Of a DNA stretch of 12,075 nucleotides, positions 1 through 12,075 are shown piece by piece. Positions within the stretch are counted from its first letter, which is position 1, and every line of letters starts with the position of its first letter. This stretch comes from Azolla caroliniana (taxonomy: Eukaryota > Plantae > Polypodiophyta), in assembly GCA_043228905.1 (NCBI GenBank), contig JBHGNT010001098.1, positions 1 to 12,075 of the forward strand. Direction: 5' to 3'. The notes beneath the pieces are model-generated. The model was not told the DNA's origin, ran no database searches, and was given only the letters and a program-made list of their open reading frames with translations. Position numbers and translations under genes: made by a program.

Positions 1-797
1 CCCGGATTTAAACTAAACCGACCTTCCCGACATTTCTCCAAACATAGTCGTAAATGCTCAAAAGGTTTTCCGACTATAAACAGCAAAATTATCCAAAAAG
101 ACTTGCATAAATGTAGGAATGTAATCCCCACATATTTCCTGTATCACTCCTTGGAATGTCATCGGAGCGGTCTTCAAGACAAACATCATTACTACCACTA
201 CAAACACTCCCCATTCTGTAAAAAAGCTGTCTTTTCTTGATCTTTCAGATTCATCTAAACCTGATTATAACCAGTAAAACCATCTAGGAAACTATAGACT
301 TCATGGCCAGCTACCGCATCCAATATACCATCCGTAAATGGTAATGGAAAAGCATCTGTAACGGTAGCCGCATTCAGTTTTCGGTAGTCGACACATACCC
401 AAATCTTGCCATTCTTTTTCGGAACTACTACGATTGGATTTAACCATGTCGATTTTTTCACTGGACGGATAAACCCTACTTTCAAAAGTTTATCTATTTC
501 TTCTTTTACTTTAATAGCATAATTAGGATTTAATTGGTACTTGCGTTGTTGAACTGGCTTTACATCCTTATGCAGGTTGATTTGATGTTGACAGAAAGCT
601 GGGTCAAGTCCCTTCATATCTTCAAAAGACCATGCAAAGACATCCTTATATTGCTTTACTAATGCCATTAACCGTTGTTTGTCAGCTTCTATCATATCTT
701 TAGCAATGAGTACTGTTTTCAACCCATTGTCCTTATCTTCTTCTGCCAAATTCATTTCCTCCAATGCTGAAGCTTGAACTCGTTGGGACACCTTCAT
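1..797 (-). pseudogene. pol: E1 reverse transcriptase (degraded)
   Basis: ORF 255-797 has KDVFAWSFEDMKGLDP, WLNPIVVVPKKNGKIWVCVDYRKLN, DAFPLP and FLDGFTGYNQV. After a stop and frameshift it continues KTAF-TEWGVF...MF.LKTAPMTFQ...MQVFLDNF. The catalytic FLDD reads FLDN at 88-99. Confidence 0.93.
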
Positions 798-1655
798 CTC
801 TCTGTCGGTAGCTTCTTGCTAGAGTCGTATTTCTTTCATTGTTTGCTCATTTATTGGCAATTCCTCCTGGGAATCCACATATGGTGTCAAGGCTAGTAAA
901 ATATCCACTTCGAACAAAGGAATGATTTTCGGATTATCATCAAAATACTAATTTTCTTCGACCTCGTCTATTCCTTCCATCATATTGACAGACTCAACGT
1001 GCACTGGCAAACATTGTTTCCTTGTCGCAACCTTGTTTTGTGTAGACACCCGGATTTTCGTTTTGCCTTTTCTAAACGTCAGTTGATTCTGATTCCAATT
1101 CTGCTTGATGTTAGCAGTCTTTAACTATGGGCGACCTAATAGCAAGGGATATGCACCAGGAGCTTCCAAATGAAGTATTACTGATATCAGAAAGCTATGA
1201 CCACCCACCAACACCACCTCTAATTGTTGGAGTAAGCCAATTGGTCGTATCGTATTGGTATCTGCCATTCTTAGCCAAAATGGGCAAGCTTCCCATTTAG
1301 TAATACCCAACGTATCACAGGTGGTTTTATTAATGACATTTACTTCTGAGCCACCATCGACAATCGCATTTTTGATTTCCTGACCATGAATTATTACTTT
1401 AATCGATGGATTTTGCTCATCCAATATTGAAGGGCTGGTGCTCGGCTGACTATAGTGTACCAATACTTGTTTTGACCCTTTTTGGGCAATCAATGTTGCC
1501 ACCTTTTCGGTAAATCTAGGAACCAACTTAAGTAATCTGGTCAGTGGTAGTGATACTTGGCAATTTGCCAAGATCTTCCAAGTTTCCTCTTGTTCTGGTA
1601 CAACAATAGCTCCTGGTAATTCAATAGCTTGGTTAATTTCATTGTCTTGAAGCAT
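798..1655 (-). pseudogene. pol: E1 aspartic protease and PR-RT linker
   Basis: AIVDGGSEVNVI (DGGS at 1347-1358), CPFWLRMADT and YPLLLGRP*L (W to stop), then the linker VESVNMMEGIDEVEE...IIPLFEVDI. Confidence 0.9.
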
Positions 1656-3050
1656 CCGGTTTACATTATTTTGGTTTGCTTCCTCTACCCATTCCTTGGC
1701 TGCTTTTCGGACTGCTTCCTGAATCTCTCACTCAGATTGTTTACTTTTGCTTCTAGTGGTTACTTGTTGTATTTTTGGTATATTAACCATATTAGCGGCC
1801 GATCCTTTTCCTTTAGTAGGACACTAATTAGCATAATGACCAGTTTGATAGCAAATATAGCAAGTAGGAACAAACGTTCCACTTCCCTCACCTTGCACAA
1901 ACGGACCAGTCCCATCATTTTGTATAAACTGTTGACCATCATTCCCATTAGAATTCGGCGATTGTTGAAACTGTCGTGAGGCTTTTGGCTTGTAGAATTT
2001 TTTATTTTTATACCGGTTCTGCTTAAACTGTCCTCCATTTTGGTGTTGCTAATTCATATTCTGTGCTGCCAAGAATTCTTGATTTTGTTGAAAATCTTGA
2101 TTGTGCTGAAAATTATTTTGTTGAAAGGCCTGATTATTATTTTGCTGAAAGGCTTGATTTTGTTGAAAATTATTTTGTTGTTTTTGTGGAAAACTATTAT
2201 GTTGGTACCCATTATTGAACAAATTCTGGTTATTTTGGTGCCTGTTTTCCGGAAAAATTCGTCTTACTGGAGCCGTCGTCTTATTGAGCAAGTTATACTC
2301 ACATTGCTCGACCGAATGAAGTTTAGAATGACATATTGTGCAGTGTGTTCGTAGACTACATTCGATCGCCGAATGACCAGTATTTAAACAAGTAGTACAT
2401 TGAACTGCTTGTCGAAATTGTAACTCCTCCATCGTTGGCAGTGTACGATTTAATGCTGACATATCCATACTCCGTACATTTATCGGCGGTCAGCCCATAT
2501 CGATTGCCTTATCAATCACTTGCTCGATATTCTGATTCCAAAAATCAAACACCTTTAGTGTTGTTCGTAATGGTTCACGAATTGCTTCAAGGAATACATC
2601 CTTAAATTCATTGTCTGGAATAGGCCTGGAAATTTGAAGTTGTAAATTCTGAAAACGGATCATGAATTGAGACACTGTTTCATGTTGCTCCTGATACAAT
2701 GCATAAAATTGCGCTATCAAATCCTTTTGAGGTATCTGACGATGAAATAACTGCAGAAATTTGTTGGTCAATTGTTCGAATGTTTCGAACCCATGCAGAC
2801 CATTTTGTGCAAACCAATTAGTGGAATAACCATCCAATGACAAAACGAACTCAACAATCTTAGACTTATCTTCGGCTGCCGCCGATAGTTTCTGAGCTCC
2901 ATGGTTAATCTCCCATGTTGTCAGGAAATCCCTCACATGCGCTTCTGCATCAGTTCCCTCACAGAACTTAGAATACGGAAAAGGCATATTGTCCTCACGC
3001 TAGATATCGTAAAATGATACCTCCTCCGGCTGATTTTCGTCCGAAGACTA
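1656..3050 (-). pseudogene. gag: E1 gag (capsid, three CCHC zinc knuckles, Q/N-rich spacer)
   Basis: Retrotransposon gag-like ORF 2490-2987 (KF...DAEAHV...WF...F..LYQEQHETVSQF..RF). Knuckles CTTCLNTGHSAIEC (2358-2399), CTICHSKLHSVEQC (2301-2342) and CYICYQTGHYAN*C (1821-1862). The start position is approximate. Confidence 0.88.
2080..2240 (-). repeat. Imperfect codon-level repeats encoding FQQN(N/Q) units in E1 gag
   Basis: Recurrent ttttgttgaaa / aattattttg on the plus strand; translation QQNNFQQNQAFQQNNNQAFQQNNFQHNQDFQQNQEF. Confidence 0.8.
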
Positions 3051-3083
3051 GCTATAAGTTAAATTAGGAAGTACAAACCACCC

Positions 3084-3657
3084 TGTACTTGTTTCTGGCT
3101 ATAATTCCGCAGCTGATTCTATCTCTAGGGCCTTCGTCACAGAATGTATACGAGGACGTTTACAACAGACTAGTGTATCTGGATCGGACAACATCCATTC
3201 GTCCTGTCCCATCGAGCATACCAAAATTATACTGTGTTGTTCGGGTTCGTACCGAACGTTCTATCAAGAAGTTGTGGTTAGAGGAATAGATACGAATTAG
3301 TTGTAAACGTATTGGTGATAACAGACATCGAGATCGTGACTTATGTAATATAGCTTAGACAGAAGGAAATAGATAGCAAGAGCGATTCCTACACAGAGGT
3401 TTCTTAACTAAACTTTATATTACTAAATACAACGATAGATTTTTCCAATGCCTTCGGTTCCTTTTATAGGTAACCCGAAGGTCTTTTCTCATCAAGAAAT
3501 CCTACTGCCTATAATTATCAAGAATTACAAAACTTCGTAACTAATTATATCCTATTCGGTTATCTGTTGAGTCATCGATCCGAATTGTCGATCCGACTCC
3601 GACTCTGACTCCGAACTTCCTTCCGACTCCGACGCATCCATACTTGTCTGGGTAACA
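3084..3657 (-). repeat. E1 5' LTR (~574 bp)
   Basis: Minus strand begins TGTTACCC at 3657, where E2 gag-like coding abruptly starts, and ends AAGTACA at 3084, about 30 nt before the gag frame. Contains TATAAAA and CCGACT repeats (3593-3633). The second LTR is outside the window, so the ends cannot be confirmed. Confidence 0.65.
3462..3468 (-). promoter_or_regulatory. TATA box of E1 LTR
   Basis: Minus strand CCTATAAAAG inside the inferred LTR, oriented toward gag. Confidence 0.6.
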
Positions 3658-4890
3658 CAATGATCCGTATTCGAACGAAGAAGAGCAAGAAGAAGAGGAT
3701 TACCCGAGCAATGACCGTTACAATCCTCAGGGAGGGCGTTGCTACGATAACCGATGTTCCATCAACAATCGCGGCGGCCAGGTTGAGTCGTGCTCGTATG
3801 GAGGAAATCATCAATCACGAAATCAGCAGCTCCACGATGAGAGTTTGGAGGAAGAACGGTGCCAGAATAATCGTCGTGAGTATTGCCAGAAGCCTCGTAC
3901 CAACAGGTGGTTTCAGCGATCTCGGGAAGAACAAACAACGCATGTGGAGCCGATGGCACCCCCAGTTGTCAAAAAAGGTGAGTCCAATGTCCAATATCCT
4001 TTGTTTTATTTGTCAACAACCAAGCCATTACATGACTCAATGCCTACGCCGCAATAAAGGAAAAGGGCCAGCAGTGAACACAATCACGGTAGAAGTCCAG
4101 CAAGTTATGACCCGTAGCAAGGTGAAAACCACGGACTAGGTGGAGCAAGATGAGATTCGGAAAGCTGCTAAAGCTTGGGTAGAAAAACCAAATGAAGCCA
4201 ATGTGGAACGCATGCGGCAAGAATCCGGGCACACCGCCACTTATGACCAAGAGACGGAATTGGCGCCGGATCTGATATGGCAAGCACTTGCCGATTGCGA
4301 GATCATGCTAACAACAGACAAATTAAATTATTAAATCTAGTTCCTCGATTCCGACAGACTTTGGAAAACCGAATATGGGGCACAAACAAAATAGAAATTC
4401 TGGTGAATTTTATGGAGTCTAACACAGGCCCAGCCATGGTTGATCATCATAATCCAGCCATCAAGGTGGTGCTTCAAGGGTAGGAAATCACGGGCTGGAT
4501 TATCGACACCAGCCTTGGGGTGAACATGATTAGTAAGGCCACATTACGAAATGGGAAGCTTGCCCATTTTGGCTCCGAATGAAGGATACTCGTTTCGTTA
4601 AACCATTAAGGTTGGTTCAGAAATTACGGATCGTAATCAGCGAACATTCCTTTGAAATTGCAGTTGTTGTTTTGGCTCTGGACGCACTAGGGGTGTATCC
4701 TATCTTGTTAGGACGACCATCGTTATGCTTTGCTAATATCAAGCAGAACTGGCAGTACAATTGCATTAGCTTTCGATGAACCCGAGCCAAGGTCTAGGTG
4801 CCAACACAGGAAACCACCTTGCCCACAAAAGCAATAACGCCACTAAACGCGGAAGAAATTAGCATGATGAAAGGGTTGGAGGATACAGAG
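3658..4890 (+). pseudogene. gag-pol: E2 gag C-terminus (acidic/R-rich region, CCHC) and protease
   Basis: DPYSNEEEQEEEDY..., CFICQQPSHYMTQC (~4002-4043), IIDTSLGVNMI (~4499-4531), YPILLGRP. Many stops and frameshifts. Confidence 0.88.
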
Positions 4891-5340
4891 GATAAGGCGT
4901 ACGAAGCGCTAAAAGTGACACTTACACAAGCACCCATCATGCAACGTCTGGTTTGGTCAAAACCATTTCATGTATTTGTCGATGCATCCAACATAGCCAT
5001 CGGTAACACACTCATGCAGCTAACCAAGCTAAGCTGGTATCGGCCAATATATTATTTCAATTGCAAGTTAACAGACGCCGAATAGACCTATTTGACAACC
5101 AAGCGTGAAGCCTTAGGAATGATCTACAACATCAACAAATTCTGGCATTATCTATTAGTTCGGAAATTCACTTTTCGTGTGGATAACGTTGCATTGTTGT
5201 ACCTTGTTGCTAAACAATCACTAAGCGGGGAATTGGCCCGATGGATGCTGCTATTACAAGAACTTGAGTTCAAAATCCAGCATCGGCCAAGGAAACAGCA
5301 TGCGATGGCAGATTATCTAAGTTGGATCAACTATGACGAC
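4891..5340 (+). pseudogene. pol: E2 RT connection remnant and RNase H
   Basis: DKAYEALKVTLTQAPI, FHVFVDASNIAIG (D at 4981), YLTTKREALGM, FRVDNVALLYL, LARWMLLLQE, HAMADYLS. Confidence 0.92.
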
Positions 5341-5629
5341 GACGTAGTCACATCGCATGACGATTTTCTGGATGCCGAAATATTGCGTATTACGAAAACC
5401 GATGTGAAAGATGGCAACCACTTCTTGGATAAATGGTTGATGGAAATGACCTCCGTCTTAAGTACAGGGCTACCACCTCCAAAGCTAAGGACGGACGAAA
5501 AGAAACGACTGGCGGTCAGGAACTGGAACTTCTATCTCTTACTTAAAAGGAATATTATACCATAACGGAAGTGACAGCATCTGGCGACAGTGTGTATGAC
5601 AAGACGAAAAGGACACGGTCTTATGAGAG

Positions 5630-6771
5630 ACTCATTGCAGCACAACAGGGGGGCACTACGCAGGGGATGTAATGGCCCGGAAGGTATGGCAAGCAGGACT
5701 GTGGTGGCCCACAATGCAAAGGGATACGTACGTATATTGTAAAGAATGTGACCTTTGCCAGCGTATGGGCCAATCTATAGGGTTGGCACGGATGCCCCAT
5801 CAGCCGGTACTCCTGCTCGAACCATTTCCGAAATGGGGCCTCGATTTCGTCGAACCCTTTACTCCAGCCGCGGCCCGCACTAGAAACAAATATATCCTAG
5901 TGTCCACGGACTATTGTACGAAATGGGTAGAGGCAAAAGCGTTGCGCGACAACACCGGGGCTTCCACAACTAAATTCTTGTATGAGTACATTTGATGCCG
6001 TTTTGGTTGTCCTATCAAGCTCATCGGTGATCAAGGAAGCCATTTTCTGAATACGGTCATCCACAATCTCACCGAACATTTCGCCGTAGTTCATAAGAAA
6101 AGCACACATATATTATCCACAAGCCAATGGTCTTGCGGAGTCGATGAATAAAACATTCCAGAATATCTTGAAAAAGATCGTCAATGACAACCACACGGAT
6201 TGGGACACGAAGTTGCACAACGCCCTATGGGCATACTGCACCAACTTCAAAACCAACATCCAATCAACACCATTCTGACTGGATTTTTGACAAGAAGCCG
6301 TAATGCCTGTAGAGTTTTAGGTACCGAGTTTACACATATAGGTCCGCGAACGTCTTTCAGGGAGACAGTTTGAACAAATCCGCTTACAACAACTACTCGA
6401 ACTGGGGGAAGACAGAGTCCACAGCATGGCAATTTTGGAGCACGAGTAGCGGTAGTGGAAGGCATTCGTGGACTGGCACAATGGCACCAATGCGAAGTAC
6501 TTTGAGATGGGAAAAGCGGTCCTTGTATTCCAAACTCGCATGGGACAAATGCCAGGAAAACTGCGTTTCTGCTGGACAGGGCCGTATTGGATAGTAGGAG
6601 CCGAAAACGGAACATTCGTATTGGGCACCCTTGCAGGGGGAAGTACTACGCCAAAAGGTCAATGGGTTTCGAGTAAAGCCATATTGGGGACCCACACTAC
6701 CCAACCCTTTTCGTGCCAAGATTGACAATCAAACTGCTTCCCTGACGGAGGTGGAGTGGAACGGCCACTAA
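5630..6771 (+). pseudogene. pol: E2 integrase (HHCC, DDE core, GPY/F)
   Basis: H...GGHYAG...CKECDLCQ; WGLDF (D 5843), GDQGSHF (D 6029), GLAESMNK (E 6138); KLRFCWTGPYWIV; VNGFRVKPY; ends at TAA 6769-6771. Frameshifted. Confidence 0.93.
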
Positions 6772-6921
6772 TAGCGCCCATTTGTAAATATATGTAACGA
6801 TAATGTAGCGTAAGGCCAGTCATAACCATTAGGTCTGAAATGAGAAAAGAAAGTAAAAAGGATAGTCACGACTATTAAAAGGAGCACATGCACGCACACT
6901 TTCCAAGAAAGGGAGAACACA

Positions 6922-9077
6922 ATGTCCTCTCGATTAGCTCGACCGGACGACATGACGATAGATATCTTCCCAGCTCTGTGGTGATGGTTACACGACAAGG
7001 TTACATTCGGGTAGTAGAAGCCACCCCACCCGAACGCTCAGGATGTGGTAAGAAAACTCCACATGGACACAATCACAAAAGCCAGCATTAGGAAAAAGCA
7101 GGGCCTATCTGGAAGTGGCAAATGTTACTTCGAAATCCCTACAACAGGGATTCTCGAACGATACTTCGGGGAATATTCAACTTCAGCAAAAGCATACAAA
7201 ACATGGGAGGTACCTAACCCATTCTTTCGCGAAGTAGCGAAGTTTTTATTGGAAGTAGGGTGCGTACATACCAATGCCTATGGGATGCCGAAGCAGAAAG
7301 CGGGTATTATCATAGATATGTTTGAGGGTCAGGCCATTGACTGGGGAGTCATCACGGGGGCAGCGCTGCGAGAAGGCCTACATCCGTTTCGGGCCGGGAA
7401 ACAACTTCGCCCCATCATCCAACAGTACTTGATAGTATTATATGTTTGAAGGTCACGCCATTGATTGGGGAGTCATCACGAGGACAGCGCTGCGAGAAGG
7501 CCTACATCTGTTTCGGGCCGGGAAACAACTTCGCCCCATCATCCAGCAGTACTTGATAATACTATATGTTTGAGTGTTAGGCCATTGACTGGGGAGTCAT
7601 CACGGGGACAGCGCTGCGAGAAGGCCTACATCCGTTTCGGGCCGGGAAACAACTTCGCCCCATCATCCAGCGGTAAGGGTGTGTTCACCTCGGAGAGCGA
7701 AGTTTTGTCCTACCCAGATATTCCAGACATGGGCCATGAGTTTGGTGCCCTTTTGCAGTTCGGCACAACCTTTGAGCTAATGGAGTTCCTGGTGACACAA
7801 CAAATTAACGTGTCCCAACGAATGGCCGAGGAACACGCCAAATGCCAAATGATCAAGCACACGCTGAACCAAACAACGGAAAGTGAAGACGAAGGCCCAT
7901 TAGCGAGGGTGGGGAGAAAGAGAAATGGCAGCATTCGCCATATAGGCATAGAGCTCCCTTCGCTAAATAGGACCTTAGTGGGGGTACATAGGGAGCTAGC
8001 GACGGTTACCATTGGCACCAAAAATATGGTTGCCAAGAACAAAAATTTATGGAAGACCATAAAGGCAACCTAGAAGCAGTTGGATAAGGCACAACAACAA
8101 ATTACGGAGCTCGAAACTAGTGCACCAGTGACGCAAACATCTCCCATCCCCACCTCCCAAGAAGTTGAGCTGCGGGCTCTATGGGAGGAGGCAGAGGCCC
8201 AAGCAGCATTAACGACCAAGAAAAAATGGGCTACTCAGTTGGCTGAATTCGAGATCGAACGCCTTAGGTTGAAACTCCACCAGTCTTTAGACAAAGAAGC
8301 GGACATTGGAGCAAAAGAACACAAGGCGGTCAAGGCATTGCAAGACAAGCTCAATGACAAAATAGTCGTGCATGGCCGAACAAAGGCCGAGCTGAACACA
8401 TTCAACAGGGAGGGAACCAAGAAAGAAGGAAGCATCATGGCGTTAAGAGAAGCGTCACAGAAAAGGTAGGCGTGGTATAACGATCAACTCGAGCACGAGC
8501 GCCAAAAGACCAGAGATGTTGAAATCCTCAACAACGAGATGGGCCGACTAGAGGGGCTCCATGAGAAGGAGTCTCAGATATGGTCACAAATGAAAATGCA
8601 TTATGAAGAAGCAACGGCGGTCAACAAACGCAAAATCGAAAACCTCAAAAAGGCTCTTGAGGATTTGCAAGCCTGCACTCACTTTACATGGAACGTATCC
8701 GCACCTTCCTCCACACAAAATGTGATTGGTTTATGGCCCAACTCTAAGCGTCCATGGACAGAGGTTGGGCCGGATGGGCAAAACAGGTGGCGAAACTCCA
8801 CATTACAGGGCGGATTGGGAGAATCGGCGAAAGGATGGGAAAGGTTTTTACAAGTTGAGCGAGGATAACATCGCTATGGTCCAAGAAGACCTGACGCAGG
8901 ACTACCAAGCCTTGGCCGACCACCACATCGAGGAATATAGCACATCTATGAGAAGATTTTGGTGAAAGCCAGGAGGAGACATTATGCCAGCTGCATGACA
9001 TCATCGATGAAAAACGAAGAACAGAGGAGAGGAAAAAGATAGAGGTCATCATCCTTCTCGACAGCGACTCCACGTAG
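6922..9077 (+). pseudogene. E2 extra ORF downstream of pol (N-terminal IDWG-type domain plus long coiled coil), degraded
   Basis: ATG 6922 is in the same frame as ORF pieces starting 7045, 7465, 8080 and 8539, separated by point stops. Frameshifted tail ends ...KKIEVIILLDSDST TAG (9075-9077). E/K/Q/L-rich heptad-like sequence ~7790-8670. Confidence 0.72.
7316..7671 (+). repeat. Tandem triplication of a 124-bp unit (two full copies plus 108 bp)
   Basis: Copies start ATATGTTTGA at 7316, 7440 and 7564. By hand, 9 mismatches in 124 between copies 1 and 2 and 4 in 108 between copies 1 and 3. Confidence 0.97.
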
Positions 9078-9203
9078 CGGCACGAGAGTCCGCATGCGCA
9101 AGAGGTGTCATGATATGGCAAGACTGGAACCCACAACCTTATGTTATATGGGTAGAGCTCCTGACCATATTCATTTAAGTTTTACTACAAAAAATTATTG
9201 TAT

Positions 9204-9248
9204 ATTCTAGATTTGTCTGGAACATTCTAGAAGCTTCAGGACTATTCC
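9204..9248 (+). promoter_or_regulatory. Heat-shock element array in E3 LTR
   Basis: gGAAcaTTCtaGAAgcTTCa (9219-9238) is four perfect alternating nGAAn units. In-phase flanks extend it to 9 units, 6 perfect, ending about 10 bp before the TATA box. Confidence 0.75.
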
Positions 9249-9257
9249 TAAGAACAC

Positions 9258-9264
9258 TATAAAA
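9258..9264 (+). promoter_or_regulatory. TATA box of E3 LTR
   Basis: CTATAAAA directly downstream of the HSE array. Confidence 0.7.
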
Positions 9265-9426
9265 TGAGGCATACGGCATTATTTTGAACCAAATTGGTTC
9301 AATGCTAGTCTTAAGCCTCCTAGCTATTTTGTACTTACTCTTCACATAAGATATCATATGTTATCATCATCCTCTCTCTCTCTCTCTCACCTTCGCTATC
9401 CATCCTCTTAGTTGTCATAGACACGA

Positions 9427-9491
9427 TGGAATGTAGGGGGTTGAACCCATGACCTCTTCTTGGGAAACCTTACCAATTGAGCTACATTCCA
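9427..9491 (-). other. tRNA-like module (Pol III A box and B box, intact acceptor stem, truncated anticodon arm) inside solo LTR
   Basis: Minus strand TGGAATG-TA-GCTCAATTGGTA-AGGTTTCCCAAGAAGAGGTC-ATGGG-TTCAACC-CCCTA-CATTCCA. A box TAGCTCAATTGG 9484-9473, B box GGTTCAACCCC 9447-9437, 7/7 acceptor pairs. Confidence 0.75.
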
Positions 9492-9657
9492 TCTATGTAT
9501 TATTGTATTGTATAAGTTTCAATTTATTACATTGTAAGTTAATCACTAGACATGCACTCTCTAGAAGTTTCCATGCATTCTCTAGATGTTTTCTAGCTTA
9601 CAATCAAGGTGAACAACACCAGTTACGGGAGTATAATTTAGTTCTTGTTCTTTTGTC

Positions 9658-9661
<4 letters not shown>

Positions 9662-9725
<64 letters not shown>
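9662..9725 (+). repeat. (CT)32 microsatellite within solo LTR
   Basis: 64 nt of perfect CT alternation. Confidence 0.98.
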
Positions 9726-9728
<3 letters not shown>

Positions 9729-9883
9729 CTATGCTCCTCTCTATCTATATATCTATCTTTCTCTCTTTGTTAATATTGAGCTCGCCTACTTGTCCTTGTC
9801 CTCGTCTACGTCCGTGACATTAGTATTAATAGTACTTCCCTTCTCCAGTACTAATTCTCTCTGTTTTAGTACTATTCTTGACT

Positions 9884-9895
9884 GTTTGAACCAAA
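9884..9895 (+). other. Putative non-tRNA (self-priming) primer binding site of E3
   Basis: GTTTGAACCAAA follows the inferred LTR end and lacks TGG. TTGAACCAA (9886-9894) is the exact reverse complement of TTGGTTCAA (9294-9302), 36 nt after the start of the TATA box. Confidence 0.6.
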
Positions 9896-9945
9896 ATTTC
9901 CCTCTGGTCTTCTTTTTGGTTTCCCTTATCCTCTTACCCCTTACT

Positions 9946-10513
9946 ATGGCTACTGTTAGCACCCAGAAATATCAATCCATTTTTTCTGAGCTACAGTGTC
10001 TAAAAGAAAAAATCGTTGCATAGGAACAAGAAAACCAATGGTTGTTAGGGGATCTTCAACAAATTGCTTTAGAGAAACAACAAATGCAGCAACAACATGG
10101 GAAGTTGCAACAGCAACATGGGGAGTTACCGTTACGCGTACAACAACTCAAAGCAACCATCGTACCGTTACAACAACAAGGATCAAGTCCCCAAGGACTT
10201 CATAAAGAGCCCAAGATTGGTTTTCCTGTGAAATTTGATGGAACGCGCTCACAATTTAGAGGATTCCTTAATCAGGTACGCTTAGTCATGGAAATGCATC
10301 CTTCCCGATACCCCATTGATGCATCCCAAGTAGGCCTAATAGGCACGTTGCTCAGCAGCTTAGCCTTGGCATGGTTCGCTCTGCTTTTGGAAAAACAATC
10401 TACCTTGCTTAATAACTTTAAAGACTTTATTTGCGAGTTTAAAGCTTGCTTTGGAGATACCGACAACATCAAGACAACGATCAACAAAATCCGACGATTG
10501 CATCAAGGCGATC
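9946..10513 (+). pseudogene. gag: E3 gag (N-terminal coiled coil plus PEG10/RTL1/sushi-like capsid), truncated by Copia insertion
   Basis: MATVSTQKY...KIVA*EQENQW...EPKIGFPVKFDGTRSQFRGFLNQVRLVMEMHPSRYP...ALAWF...FKACFGD...IRRLHQGD in one frame, with one TAG at 10021. Confidence 0.9.
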
Positions 10514-10867
10514 TGTTGAGTGACAAGCCCACATTGGGTGCGTAAAACATTACGCATAACGTAAGCTGTAGCGGTGTGTAAACCGCGAGACCGTTGGAAA
10601 GATATTCCGCGTAGGAATATATTTTGGGAGTTAGTGTAGAGCTCATTTATGAGCATTGAAGTACGTGTCAGTACTTTTATTAGTACGTATGGACTTGTAT
10701 AAAAGTGCTCATTGTGCACATCCTATATACAGATTGAGTATTATTTTTGAATTGAGTTTTGTGCTCTCTCTCTCTCTCTCCCGCGTACTGTGTATATTCT
10801 AGCTCTCCATTAAACCTGCGTTTCTGTGTTAGGTTTTCTATTGCTTCCGCACGCTATTCTTTTTACA
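10514..10867 (+). repeat. E4 5' LTR (354 bp)
   Basis: TGTTGAG start exactly where E3 gag breaks. TTTTACA end directly before the PBS. TATATA 10724-10729 and (CT)8 10764-10780. Confidence 0.88.
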
Positions 10868-10879
10868 TGGTATCAGAGC
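10868..10879 (+). other. Primer binding site complementary to tRNA-iMet 3' end
   Basis: TGGTATCAGAGC, the canonical plant iMet PBS, immediately after CA. Confidence 0.96.
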
Positions 10880-10956
10880 GCGAGGGTTGAGAACCTTTAT
10901 AGCCGAAATTAGCTCATAAAGAAAACCTAACCTTCGTAAAGAATAGGAAAAACAAA

Positions 10957-12075
10957 ATGGATAGAGGCATGGCTAGCTCTCTTCCAATAGAGAAGCTCGA
11001 CAGAAATAACTACGCATCTTGGTCCTACAAGATGCACCAGTACCTGCTTGGGCATAGTTACTGGAGCTATGTCGATGGATCAAATGACACAGCACTCGAT
11101 TCAATGCACAAAGATTTCCCAGCGTGGGAATAGTCAGCGAGCAGATTCCTCTACTGCTTCGCGTCTTGTGTGGGGCGAACAGCTTCTGAGCTATATTCAG
11201 GATGCGAAAACGCCGAAGAATGCTTGGGGAAATCTGAAAAAGATCTTCGCCGCAAGCACCACAATCAAGAAGCTTCAACTCCGACAGGAACTGAGCAACT
11301 TACGACAACGTGACTTGTCGGTGGCTGATTACACCTTGAAGATCAAAGAGATATGCGACTCCTTAGCCTCCTTAGCGGAATGCTGGTACTGTGGCAAAAA
11401 AGGCCACAAGGAGAGCGACTACTGGAAAAAGAAAGTCTATTCAGACAAAGCCGAATCGAGCCGAAGAGACATGTCAGAGATCGCACTACGCAGAAGGTTC
11501 TGAACGAGCTAGAAACAATTTGGGCCCAACCTTCGTAATGAAGCATAAGGCCAATTCTATGGCCGTGAACACCTCGAAATCAAGTGAGGTGGGGTATGTT
11601 GATTCCGGAGCGTTAAATCATATGACGAGTCATGAGGAATGGTTCTCGTACTTGGAGAAACCAAAATCGCAAGGAGTGGTCGAAACAAGAGACGACACTC
11701 CGCATACCATCGAACATGTCGGCGACGTTCCCCTCAGCCACGTCGGGCAGCAAGGGAAGCTCATGAACGTGTTGCACGTCCCGATAATAACGAAGAACCT
11801 AGTGTCGGTCGGTCAGATTGACGATCAAGGAATGCAGGTTCGATTCATGCATCTAGGGTGCTTCATAGAAGAGGAAGCCAAAGTGATTGCTCAAGGGCGC
11901 CGTGAAGGGAGGATATTTATCCGCAACACTAATCAAGCTGACACCGCGTTGTACGTGAAAGGACAAAAGGTTGAATCGGATATCAACTTGTGGCACAAGC
12001 GGTTTGGCCACGTAAATTTCCCACGACTTCGTGAGATGCAGTCGAAGAACATTATCTTCGGCTTGCGGAAATTTC
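10957..12075 (+). pseudogene. gag-pol: E4 gag-pol (gag with internal deletion, zinc knuckle, protease, pre-integrase)
   Basis: MDRGMASSLPIEKLDRNNYASWSYKMHQYL; stop at 11131; frameshift ~11175; KNAWGNLKKIF...LQLRQEL...SVADYTLKIKEICDSLAS; CWYCGKKGHKESDY; YVDSGALNHMT (D 11601); NVLHVPIITKNLVSVGQ; LWHKRFGHVNF. Confidence 0.93.

Follow-up and report, generated by a model that had tools for sequence, protein, structure and literature searches.

A tRNA-like module at the edge of a solo LTR

We analysed a 12,075-nt stretch of Azolla caroliniana DNA (contig JBHGNT010001098.1, positions 1 to 12,075 of the forward strand), referred to below as the window. It holds a solo long terminal repeat (LTR) of a retrotransposon family that we call family S, and just inside the 5' edge of this LTR lies a short module with the internal promoter boxes of a tRNA gene. 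Comparison with related elements indicates that the module is real, under selection and lineage-wide. The LTR, 407 bp at 9413-9819, starts with TGTCA and ends with TGACA, and is read as a solo LTR because the 5-bp target-site duplication (TSD) TTAGT borders it on each side. It is placed within the U5 part of the LTR of a second, related element, the host chromovirus. The solo LTR and its module comprise the following features; loose ends of contigs resemble a polypurine tract (PPT) and a primer-binding site (PBS).

9408..9412, plus strand: 5' TSD copy TTAGT (sequence)
9413..9819, plus strand: family S solo LTR, 407 bp (sequence; contig loose ends at 9413, PPT-like, and 9819, PBS-like)
9426..9491, minus strand: tRNA-derived module, antisense to the element, its direction outward across the LTR 5' edge (tRNA model of Rfam: 26.0 bits, E 0.078)
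9425..9436, plus strand: left arm of a 12-bp inverted repeat, including the 3' acceptor strand; specific to family S
9437..9447, minus strand: B box, G52 to C62 (sequence; kept across families)
9451..9455, minus strand: variable-loop motif AGGTC, tRNA positions 44-48 (81% mean pairwise identity in 8 families)
9473..9484, minus strand: A box, T8 to G19 (sequence; kept across families)
9482..9493, plus strand: right arm of the inverted repeat, comprising the 5' acceptor strand and the start of the A box
9492..9536, minus strand: A+T-rich tract (82% A+T), upstream of the module in the sense of RNA polymerase III (Pol III)
9606..9616, plus strand: predicted self-primer of 11 nt where R starts, complementary to the family S PBS (PBS read from loose ends, run X1)
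9820..9824, plus strand: 3' TSD copy TTAGT (sequence)

The first-pass annotation of this DNA, made from the letters alone, had described an antisense tRNA mimic with a Pol III promoter built into the LTR. The tRNA-gene promoter anatomy stands, with A box (9484-9473), AGGTC motif (9455-9451) and B box (9447-9437) in order on the minus strand; AGGTC lies outside the canonical boxes, yet is conserved across families. The inverted repeat (9425-9436/9482-9493) is likewise present and perfect, and the acceptor stem pairs at 7 of 7 positions. It is the only such repeat in the window with a loop of up to 60 nt, and it appeared in 0 of 30 mononucleotide shuffles.

Other stems of the window module are poorer: the T stem pairs at 3 of 5 positions and the D stem at 3 of 4, two of these being G-U pairs. 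The predicted fold is a long hairpin and not a cloverleaf (z -2.4 to -3.8 over stretches of 66-79 nt). The tRNA search that the annotation had called for returned an Rfam score of 26.0 bits, under the 29-bit cut-off, and no ARAGORN call for the module; low-threshold ARAGORN output was noise. Sub-cut-off score, missing call and hairpin fold together rule out a tRNA gene. The family profile also matches 9426-9491, by construction, and we took a Plastid-psbM Rfam match (E 0.61) to be chance.

The module recurs across related elements

Relatives were fetched by Gag alignment alone, which gave 79 loci from the best 80 of 175 confirmed matches. We set LTR starts by the PPT, found in 23 cases of which one was dropped for lack of sequence, and set a further 11 by PBS plus terminus, chosen by eye; a candidate in L198 had no true start and was dropped. 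With the two window LTRs, this yields 35 LTR ends (22 PPT-anchored, 11 PBS-anchored). We counted a module match where the first 140 nt held, on the antisense strand, A and B boxes departing from consensus at no more than 2 positions, the consensus being the motifs that we take to be the standard ones.

Antisense A and B boxes were present in 33 of the 35 LTR 5' ends, and in 21 of 22 of those anchored on the PPT alone, compared with a single sense-strand match (1/35) and a background of 43 in 4036 control windows and 11 in 2100 shuffles. The window copy scored in this count in the wrong A-box register, its spacing of 28 lying below the scanned range. Approached from the other end, the module was found in 27 of 36 LTR ends having 560 nt upstream. 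Of the nine misses, six have no R block, which gives them a truncated or chimeric look; an insertion has displaced the module of L198, L154 is without a 5' end, and L159 is a real miss. Outward orientation was thus borne out by the antisense match in 33 of 35 ends, as was the lack of an internal terminator: no run of four Ts (T4) stands between the window module and the LTR edge, and the first is 148 nt past that edge.

At 75% identity, 34 modules form 14 clusters, with the module on the same strand and in the same place in these 14. The loci behind them are redundant, and many are collapsed multi-copy contigs. Profile matches at E up to 0.05 lay in an LTR context, as judged by eye, in 44 of 46 cases (in loci chosen by Gag). 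A scan with reverse transcriptase (RT) provided a small negative control, two tRNA-primed elements with a seed-plant-type PBS (L200, L201), both without the module. The copia LTR in the window gave no match to the module profile, and Gag scans of viral and prokaryote contigs gave no matches. Across 12 relative loci Rfam made one weak match to the module (21.4 bits), so standard tRNA tools miss it.

One module, L191 509-563, resembles a tRNA-Arg-like gene (L148 87-162) through the anticodon loop, more than those of other families do, and modules may possibly have been refreshed repeatedly from tRNA genes. Beside the Gag match of L161, tandem degenerate tRNA-Tyr-like genes alternate with other tRNA-like units (838-7323). 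An attempt to name the source tRNA by a pattern scan of viral contigs retrieved only ordinary phage tRNAs of 9 isotypes and was uninformative.

Selection acts on the boxes and not on the stems

We compared identities among 8 families with intact Pol (69-88% Pol identity). Identity is 88% at the 12 box-core positions and 81% in the variable loop, but 40% at fourfold sites and 34% between the boxes; box anchoring adds some circularity to these values, which is bounded by the control-window and shuffle null. G18, G53, T55 and A58 are invariant in 30 of 30 distinct modules, and the G18-G53 spacing is 35-36 nt in 28 of them. The distance from the B box to the LTR edge ranges from 16 to 40 among 14 representatives. 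When 12 LTRs are aligned, conserved blocks are confined to the termini, the module, the TATA box and the block of R and self-primer. A+T makes up 81% of the 45 nt upstream of the module and 60% of the rest of U3, the upstream tract being the richer in 12/12 LTRs (p 0.0005). G-to-A changes in the 30 modules are absent at G18, G19 and G53 and occur once at G52. A module built into the LTR and selected, as the annotation proposed, agrees with both the 33 of 35 ends that carry it and the box identity of 88% against 40% at fourfold sites; the module is neither missing from most LTRs of the family nor decaying at the neutral rate (0.88 versus 0.40).

Pairing shows a different pattern. Across 13 representatives (the window copy left out for its deletion) no stem covaries. 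The paired fraction is 0.65 in the D stem versus 0.59 in partner shuffles, 0.63 versus 0.66 in the T stem, 0.35 versus 0.36 in the anticodon stem, and 0.38 versus 0.32 in the acceptor stem (p 0.045 for one of four stems; p 0.17 with Watson-Crick pairs only). With no covariation and pairing near the partner-shuffle level, we rejected cloverleaf mimicry. Structurally, the 'tRNA mimic' and the 'RNA processing signal' of the first-pass annotation are not upheld: no stem covaries, and the acceptor stem is specific to family S. This stem and the 12-bp inverted repeat are peculiar to family S because acceptor pairing is at background elsewhere; they perhaps stem from a more recent refresh. Of 34 modules, 10 have a T4 run between their B box and the LTR edge and 24 have none, and beyond PPT-anchored edges the first T4 is 9 to more than 600 nt away. 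Given so variable a position, there is no conserved transcript end. As judged from these comparisons, selection is shown to act on the boxes and the variable loop and not on the stems.

The elements are self-priming chromoviruses

In 13 of 22 cases the PPT-anchored LTR lies directly behind a pol open reading frame (ORF) of 1183-1235 aa. The 13 LTRs so placed bear the module, and the gag-pol ahead of them is intact and includes a chromodomain. In the Pol of L121, Pfam finds RT, RNase H, integrase and chromodomain, the Ty3/gypsy order. All 10 Pol proteins of host-element relatives carry the chromodomain cage aromatics Y/F, W and Y, at positions that we presume from HP1. RT identity is 65% to a chytrid, 58% to Ustilago, 53-67% to amphibians and fish and 41-52% to seed plants (named matches, no reference tree), and Gag identity to Glomeromycota is 59-65%. 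By these similarities the elements fit the Tcn1 clade of chromoviruses. In L121 (5053-5060), L135, L146, L151 and L156 the pol ORF crosses the PPT and ends a few bases inside the 3' LTR terminus.

The PBS is complementary to the element's own R start and not to a host tRNA. In nine of 11 representatives a stretch 32-33 nt behind the TATA box is perfectly complementary to 12 nt of the PBS; of the other two, one has a 7-nt complement and one has none by exact match. The pairs of PBS and R start covary in three versions, and family S has a fourth (11 nt). These PBS and R-start sequences were seen at 9286-9302, 9606-9616 and 9884-9896 of the window and in L135, L137, L146, L151 and L152, at a constant 32-33 nt past the TATA box wherever there is one. 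This covariation gives clear comparative support for Tf1-type priming in Tcn1-like elements. The suspicion that the lineage may not need tRNA to prime was therefore sound: an element that primes itself can do without the tRNA that is usually needed.

The family S LTR is covered by contigs from four public DNA runs, which represent at most 3 samples. Loose ends ahead of 9413 carry a purine tract like that of the relatives, and those of run X1 behind 9809-9819 read GTTTGTTCACCTT, with the complement at 9606-9616; this PBS was read from 4 contigs behind 9809 and 6 behind 9819. Since the loose ends are PPT-like and PBS-like, family S has an internal region and a predicted self-primer. The window copy is without a TATA box ahead of its R block, likely by deletion. 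From G18 to G53 it measures 28 nt, where 13 of 14 cluster representatives measure 35-36, and among the 7 listed long contigs that cross 9454, 6 have 5-6 extra nt. The shortened anticodon arm previously described is thus correct for the window copy and mostly peculiar to it, and does not describe the family. In the four runs, 19, 12, 7 and 20 contigs have one G fewer in the G tract at 9436, and the acceptor register of these copies is shifted as a result. Listed substitutions within the family S module fall at only two places, both between the boxes (9459, 9465). In run X4, eleven contigs depart from the LTR immediately past the module, at 9487-9493, into mixed sequence, and one X9 contig joins module to module via an A/T run. 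These are weak hints of free-standing or tandem SINE-like (short interspersed element) copies, and on this point the evidence on an independent SINE with its own TSD is divided: no TSD surrounds the window module.

The host element and its surroundings

The host LTR next door carries the same module, which the first-pass annotation did not notice. The profile that matches it includes its close relative L121.

9106..9883, plus strand: host 5' LTR, Tcn1-type chromovirus, broken by the solo LTR (uninterrupted relatives L121, L122, L126)
9121..9175, minus strand: decayed second module, within the host LTR; its B box is at 9131-9121 and its A box at about 9175-9165
9258-9264, plus strand: host LTR TATA box; self-primer at about 9292-9302
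9884..9896, plus strand: self-priming-type PBS of the host element
9946..10513, plus strand: broken gag of the host element (Pfam DUF4939, Ty3_capsid)

The host gag has a stop at 10021-10023 and is cut at 10514 by a copia insertion. As a whole, the window (1-12075) holds at least five LTR elements nested together: the Tcn1-type element, the solo LTR, a pair of gypsy remnants that face opposite ways, and the copia element, which has an initiator-tRNA PBS at 10868. At 7316-7687 a 124-nt unit stands three times in tandem, within an additional ORF region that belongs to a gypsy element outside the chromoviruses. Palindromic repeats of the TTCTAGAA type, arranged in tandem, occupy mid-U3 of L146, L149, L156 and L189 and window 9215-9250. 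They give spurious Rfam miRNA matches, and from their motif we take them to be a candidate heat-shock-element-like enhancer.

A putative chromatin barrier

We favour, with evenly balanced confidence, the reading that the module is a TFIIIC/Pol III site in DNA that holds heterochromatin off the element's RNA polymerase II (Pol II) promoter. Self-priming Tcn1-type chromoviruses keep an outward-facing pair of A and B boxes at the outer edge of U3, which may go back to one ancient capture of a tRNA gene or the head of a tRNA-derived SINE and would have spread to both LTRs by reverse transcription. TFIIIC would bind the module and TFIIIB would load on the A+T tract, in the window presumably at 9492-9536. 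The resulting barrier, or open chromatin, would protect the Pol II promoter some 150-250 bases further in. Chromodomain integrases probably send elements into heterochromatin, where a portable barrier would pay. An outward Pol III transcript, if any, would be a by-product, as no terminator is conserved.

A site read in DNA is suggested because boxes, spacing, variable loop and A+T flank are kept, while RNA fold and fixed terminator are lost; absent stem covariation is as expected of such a promoter. Facing outward beside a normal TATA box, the module cannot make genomic RNA. A portable barrier seems the likeliest use because tRNA genes and extra TFIIIC (ETC) sites are reported as TFIIIC-dependent barriers in yeast and animals (PMC12409998), and because the chromodomain of the moss element RLG1 has been suggested to target heterochromatin (PMC7466625). 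The near-absence of G-to-A changes also weakly favours a DNA site, as G-U wobble would tolerate them in a site that anneals to tRNA. Taken further, and held more tentatively, an autonomous, heterochromatin-seeking chromovirus lineage would carry a tRNA-gene-type insulator at its LTR edge. Each insertion would then install a TFIIIC/Pol III site that keeps the element promoter open, and solo LTRs would seed mobile chromatin boundaries in non-seed plants and possibly in related fungal elements.

Several observations weigh against the barrier. L159 515-988 is apparently a whole LTR of the lineage without a recognisable module, through either decay or true loss, and family S is known here from its solo LTR, with coding part and autonomy seen only in relatives. 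The spacing of 35-36 nt is fixed, although yeast TFIIIC reportedly tolerates 32-93 bp between boxes (PMC12409998); this and the conserved variable loop fit a partner at the RNA level at least as well, and a barrier leaves AGGTC unexplained. It may instead be the Pol II promoter that the A+T tract serves. The C at position 56 is replaced by T in 5 of 30 modules, among them those of L162 and L166, whose pol is intact, and position 61 departs from C in 3 of 30. Pairing reaches 65% in the D stem and 63% in the T stem but about 36% in the acceptor and anticodon stems, and a loose tRNA elbow may have been kept. For tRNA/TFIIIC barriers, a review of plant barriers cites yeast and animals only in its treatment of them (PMC9540200).

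An RNA-level partner is the core of the main alternative, which the first-pass annotation did not raise and which we consider possible though unlikely. In it, a packaged host tRNA anneals at the U3 module and aids dimerisation or strand transfer, priming remaining self-priming. In genomic RNA the module is the complement of the D loop, variable loop and T arm of a tRNA, just behind the PPT, so that its antisense orientation and PPT-adjacent position fit, and the fixed spacing of 35-36 and the conserved 44-48 motif suit pairing with a real tRNA. A tRNA-gene-like sequence in U3-R of HIV-1 reportedly promotes minus-strand transfer. Counting against annealing, eukaryotic initiator tRNA has A54, unlike the T54 of 13 of 13 representatives. 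There is a precedent in Ty3, whose U3 pairs with the T and D arms of the initiator tRNA (PMC5371799). However, positions 49-51, 62-65 and 10-13 vary freely, leaving pairing short and patchy, wobble-tolerated G-to-A changes are nearly absent, and the A+T tract goes unexplained. That tract, kept along with both boxes, suggests recruitment of the full Pol III machinery over a site with a B box only, and would suit an active antisense promoter whose RNA limits copy number or feeds small-RNA pathways. Starting in a 3' LTR, it would read backwards across the PPT and the region of the chromodomain; starting in a 5' or solo LTR, it would read into the neighbouring DNA. The RNA would perhaps have a loose tRNA elbow. 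The T4 between B box and edge in 10 of 34 modules and the partly paired D and T stems agree with this, but 24 of 34 modules have no T4 before the edge, no transcript end is kept, the stems show no covariation, and it is less easy to see why selection would favour self-silencing; we think this reading doubtful.

We regard the remaining two explanations as very improbable. A neutral relic, or the passenger head of a SINE, would accord with the sub-threshold Rfam score, the X4 and X9 contigs that hint at free-standing family S modules, and the likeness of the L191 module to the L148 tRNA-Arg-like gene with its possibility of repeated refreshing. It is largely refuted by box identity of 0.88 against 0.40 at fourfold sites, and the constant strand and place in 14 clusters, the 44 of 46 profile matches in LTR context and the lack of a TSD around the window module also speak against it. 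Least probable, by a little, is that the boxes recruit TFIIIB as a landing pad beside which Pol III-targeting retroelements insert. Ty3 insertion is reported to need intact A and B boxes plus TFIIIB (PMC5911963), and the window solo LTR does sit inside a module-bearing LTR; its insertion lies about 238 nt from the host A box, however, and not just upstream of it, and insertions into an element's own promoter would give no selective reason for conservation. A and B boxes occurred within 300 nt in 0 of 12 outer LTR flanks, on which ground we also rejected tRNA-gene targeting by these elements.

The barrier reading bears on how chromodomain retrotransposons stay active after insertion into heterochromatin and on whether plants have tRNA/TFIIIC barriers. 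Since the LTRs are abundant and their box pair of 55 nt is conserved, point mutation in a transformable moss could address both. Were tRNA annealing true instead, a tRNA would be a cofactor in an element that it does not prime. Module-bearing LTRs may also inflate counts of tRNA pseudogenes.

Comparison with known systems

The closest precedent is Helenus (TRIMp3; Kojima 2024), TRIMs (miniature terminal-repeat retrotransposons) with tRNA-derived LTRs, and not Cassandra, which the first-pass annotation had named (PMC10886601). Helenus likewise has a tRNA-derived part in the LTR with A and B boxes kept and tRNA function mostly lost, its solo LTRs have 5-bp TSDs, and one family comes from a plant, Selaginella (PMC10886601). 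Helenus elements are non-autonomous (311-1263 bp) and tRNA-primed, however, whereas the present lineage encodes gag, pol and chromodomain and primes itself. In every sequence judged here their tRNA-like part is in sense and occupies the LTR's 3' half, so placed that it could drive transcription of the element, an orientation taken from the supplementary sequences and not stated in the paper's text (PMC10886601); the present module is antisense, at the U3 edge and beside a separate TATA box. Autonomous partners are expected there to use Pol II promoters (PMC10886601). The same source remarks that 'not a few LTRs' in Repbase hold tRNA-like parts, with only TRIMs analysed, so our module may already be annotated somewhere (PMC10886601). 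Cassandra and Ajax also captured an internal Pol III promoter in the LTR and kept it long, but theirs is the type 1 promoter of 5S genes, in sense, driving the RNA of a non-autonomous element (PMC10886601). Among open-licence papers and preprints we found no antisense tRNA-type LTR module in print.

The Tcn1 clade has been placed in mosses and club-mosses and predicted to self-prime (PMC6317226); going by their make-up alone, the present elements would likely be assigned to mosses. Its members share with our elements two ORFs, an aromatic-cage chromodomain, LTRs of 407-516 bp, 5-bp TSDs, a PPT, a self-priming PBS and an RT nearer to fungal and vertebrate than to seed-plant elements (PMC2864245, PMC6317226, PMC7466625). 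The clade descriptions in the parts of these papers drawn on here, including that of SM-Tcn1, mention no tRNA-like or Pol III module in the LTR. Priming of SM-Tcn1 could not be resolved by Novikova 2010 (PMC2864245), while a covarying self-primer is plain here. The bipartite PBS of Ty3 is similar in that U3 is complementary to the D and T arms of a tRNA (PMC5371799); Ty3 is tRNA-primed and matches one tRNA, unlike the tRNA-free priming here, where only positions common to many tRNAs are kept. Barriers at tRNA genes and ETC sites share the A and B boxes as TFIIIC sites with barrier function, but are fixed host loci of yeast and animals and not a standing part of an autonomous LTR retrotransposon (PMC12409998). 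What is new, as far as the compared systems tell, is the capture of a Pol III promoter, in antisense, in LTRs of autonomous self-priming chromoviruses. Whether the module works as a barrier or anneals to tRNA, small-RNA-promoter capture in LTRs would extend from TRIMs to autonomous elements.
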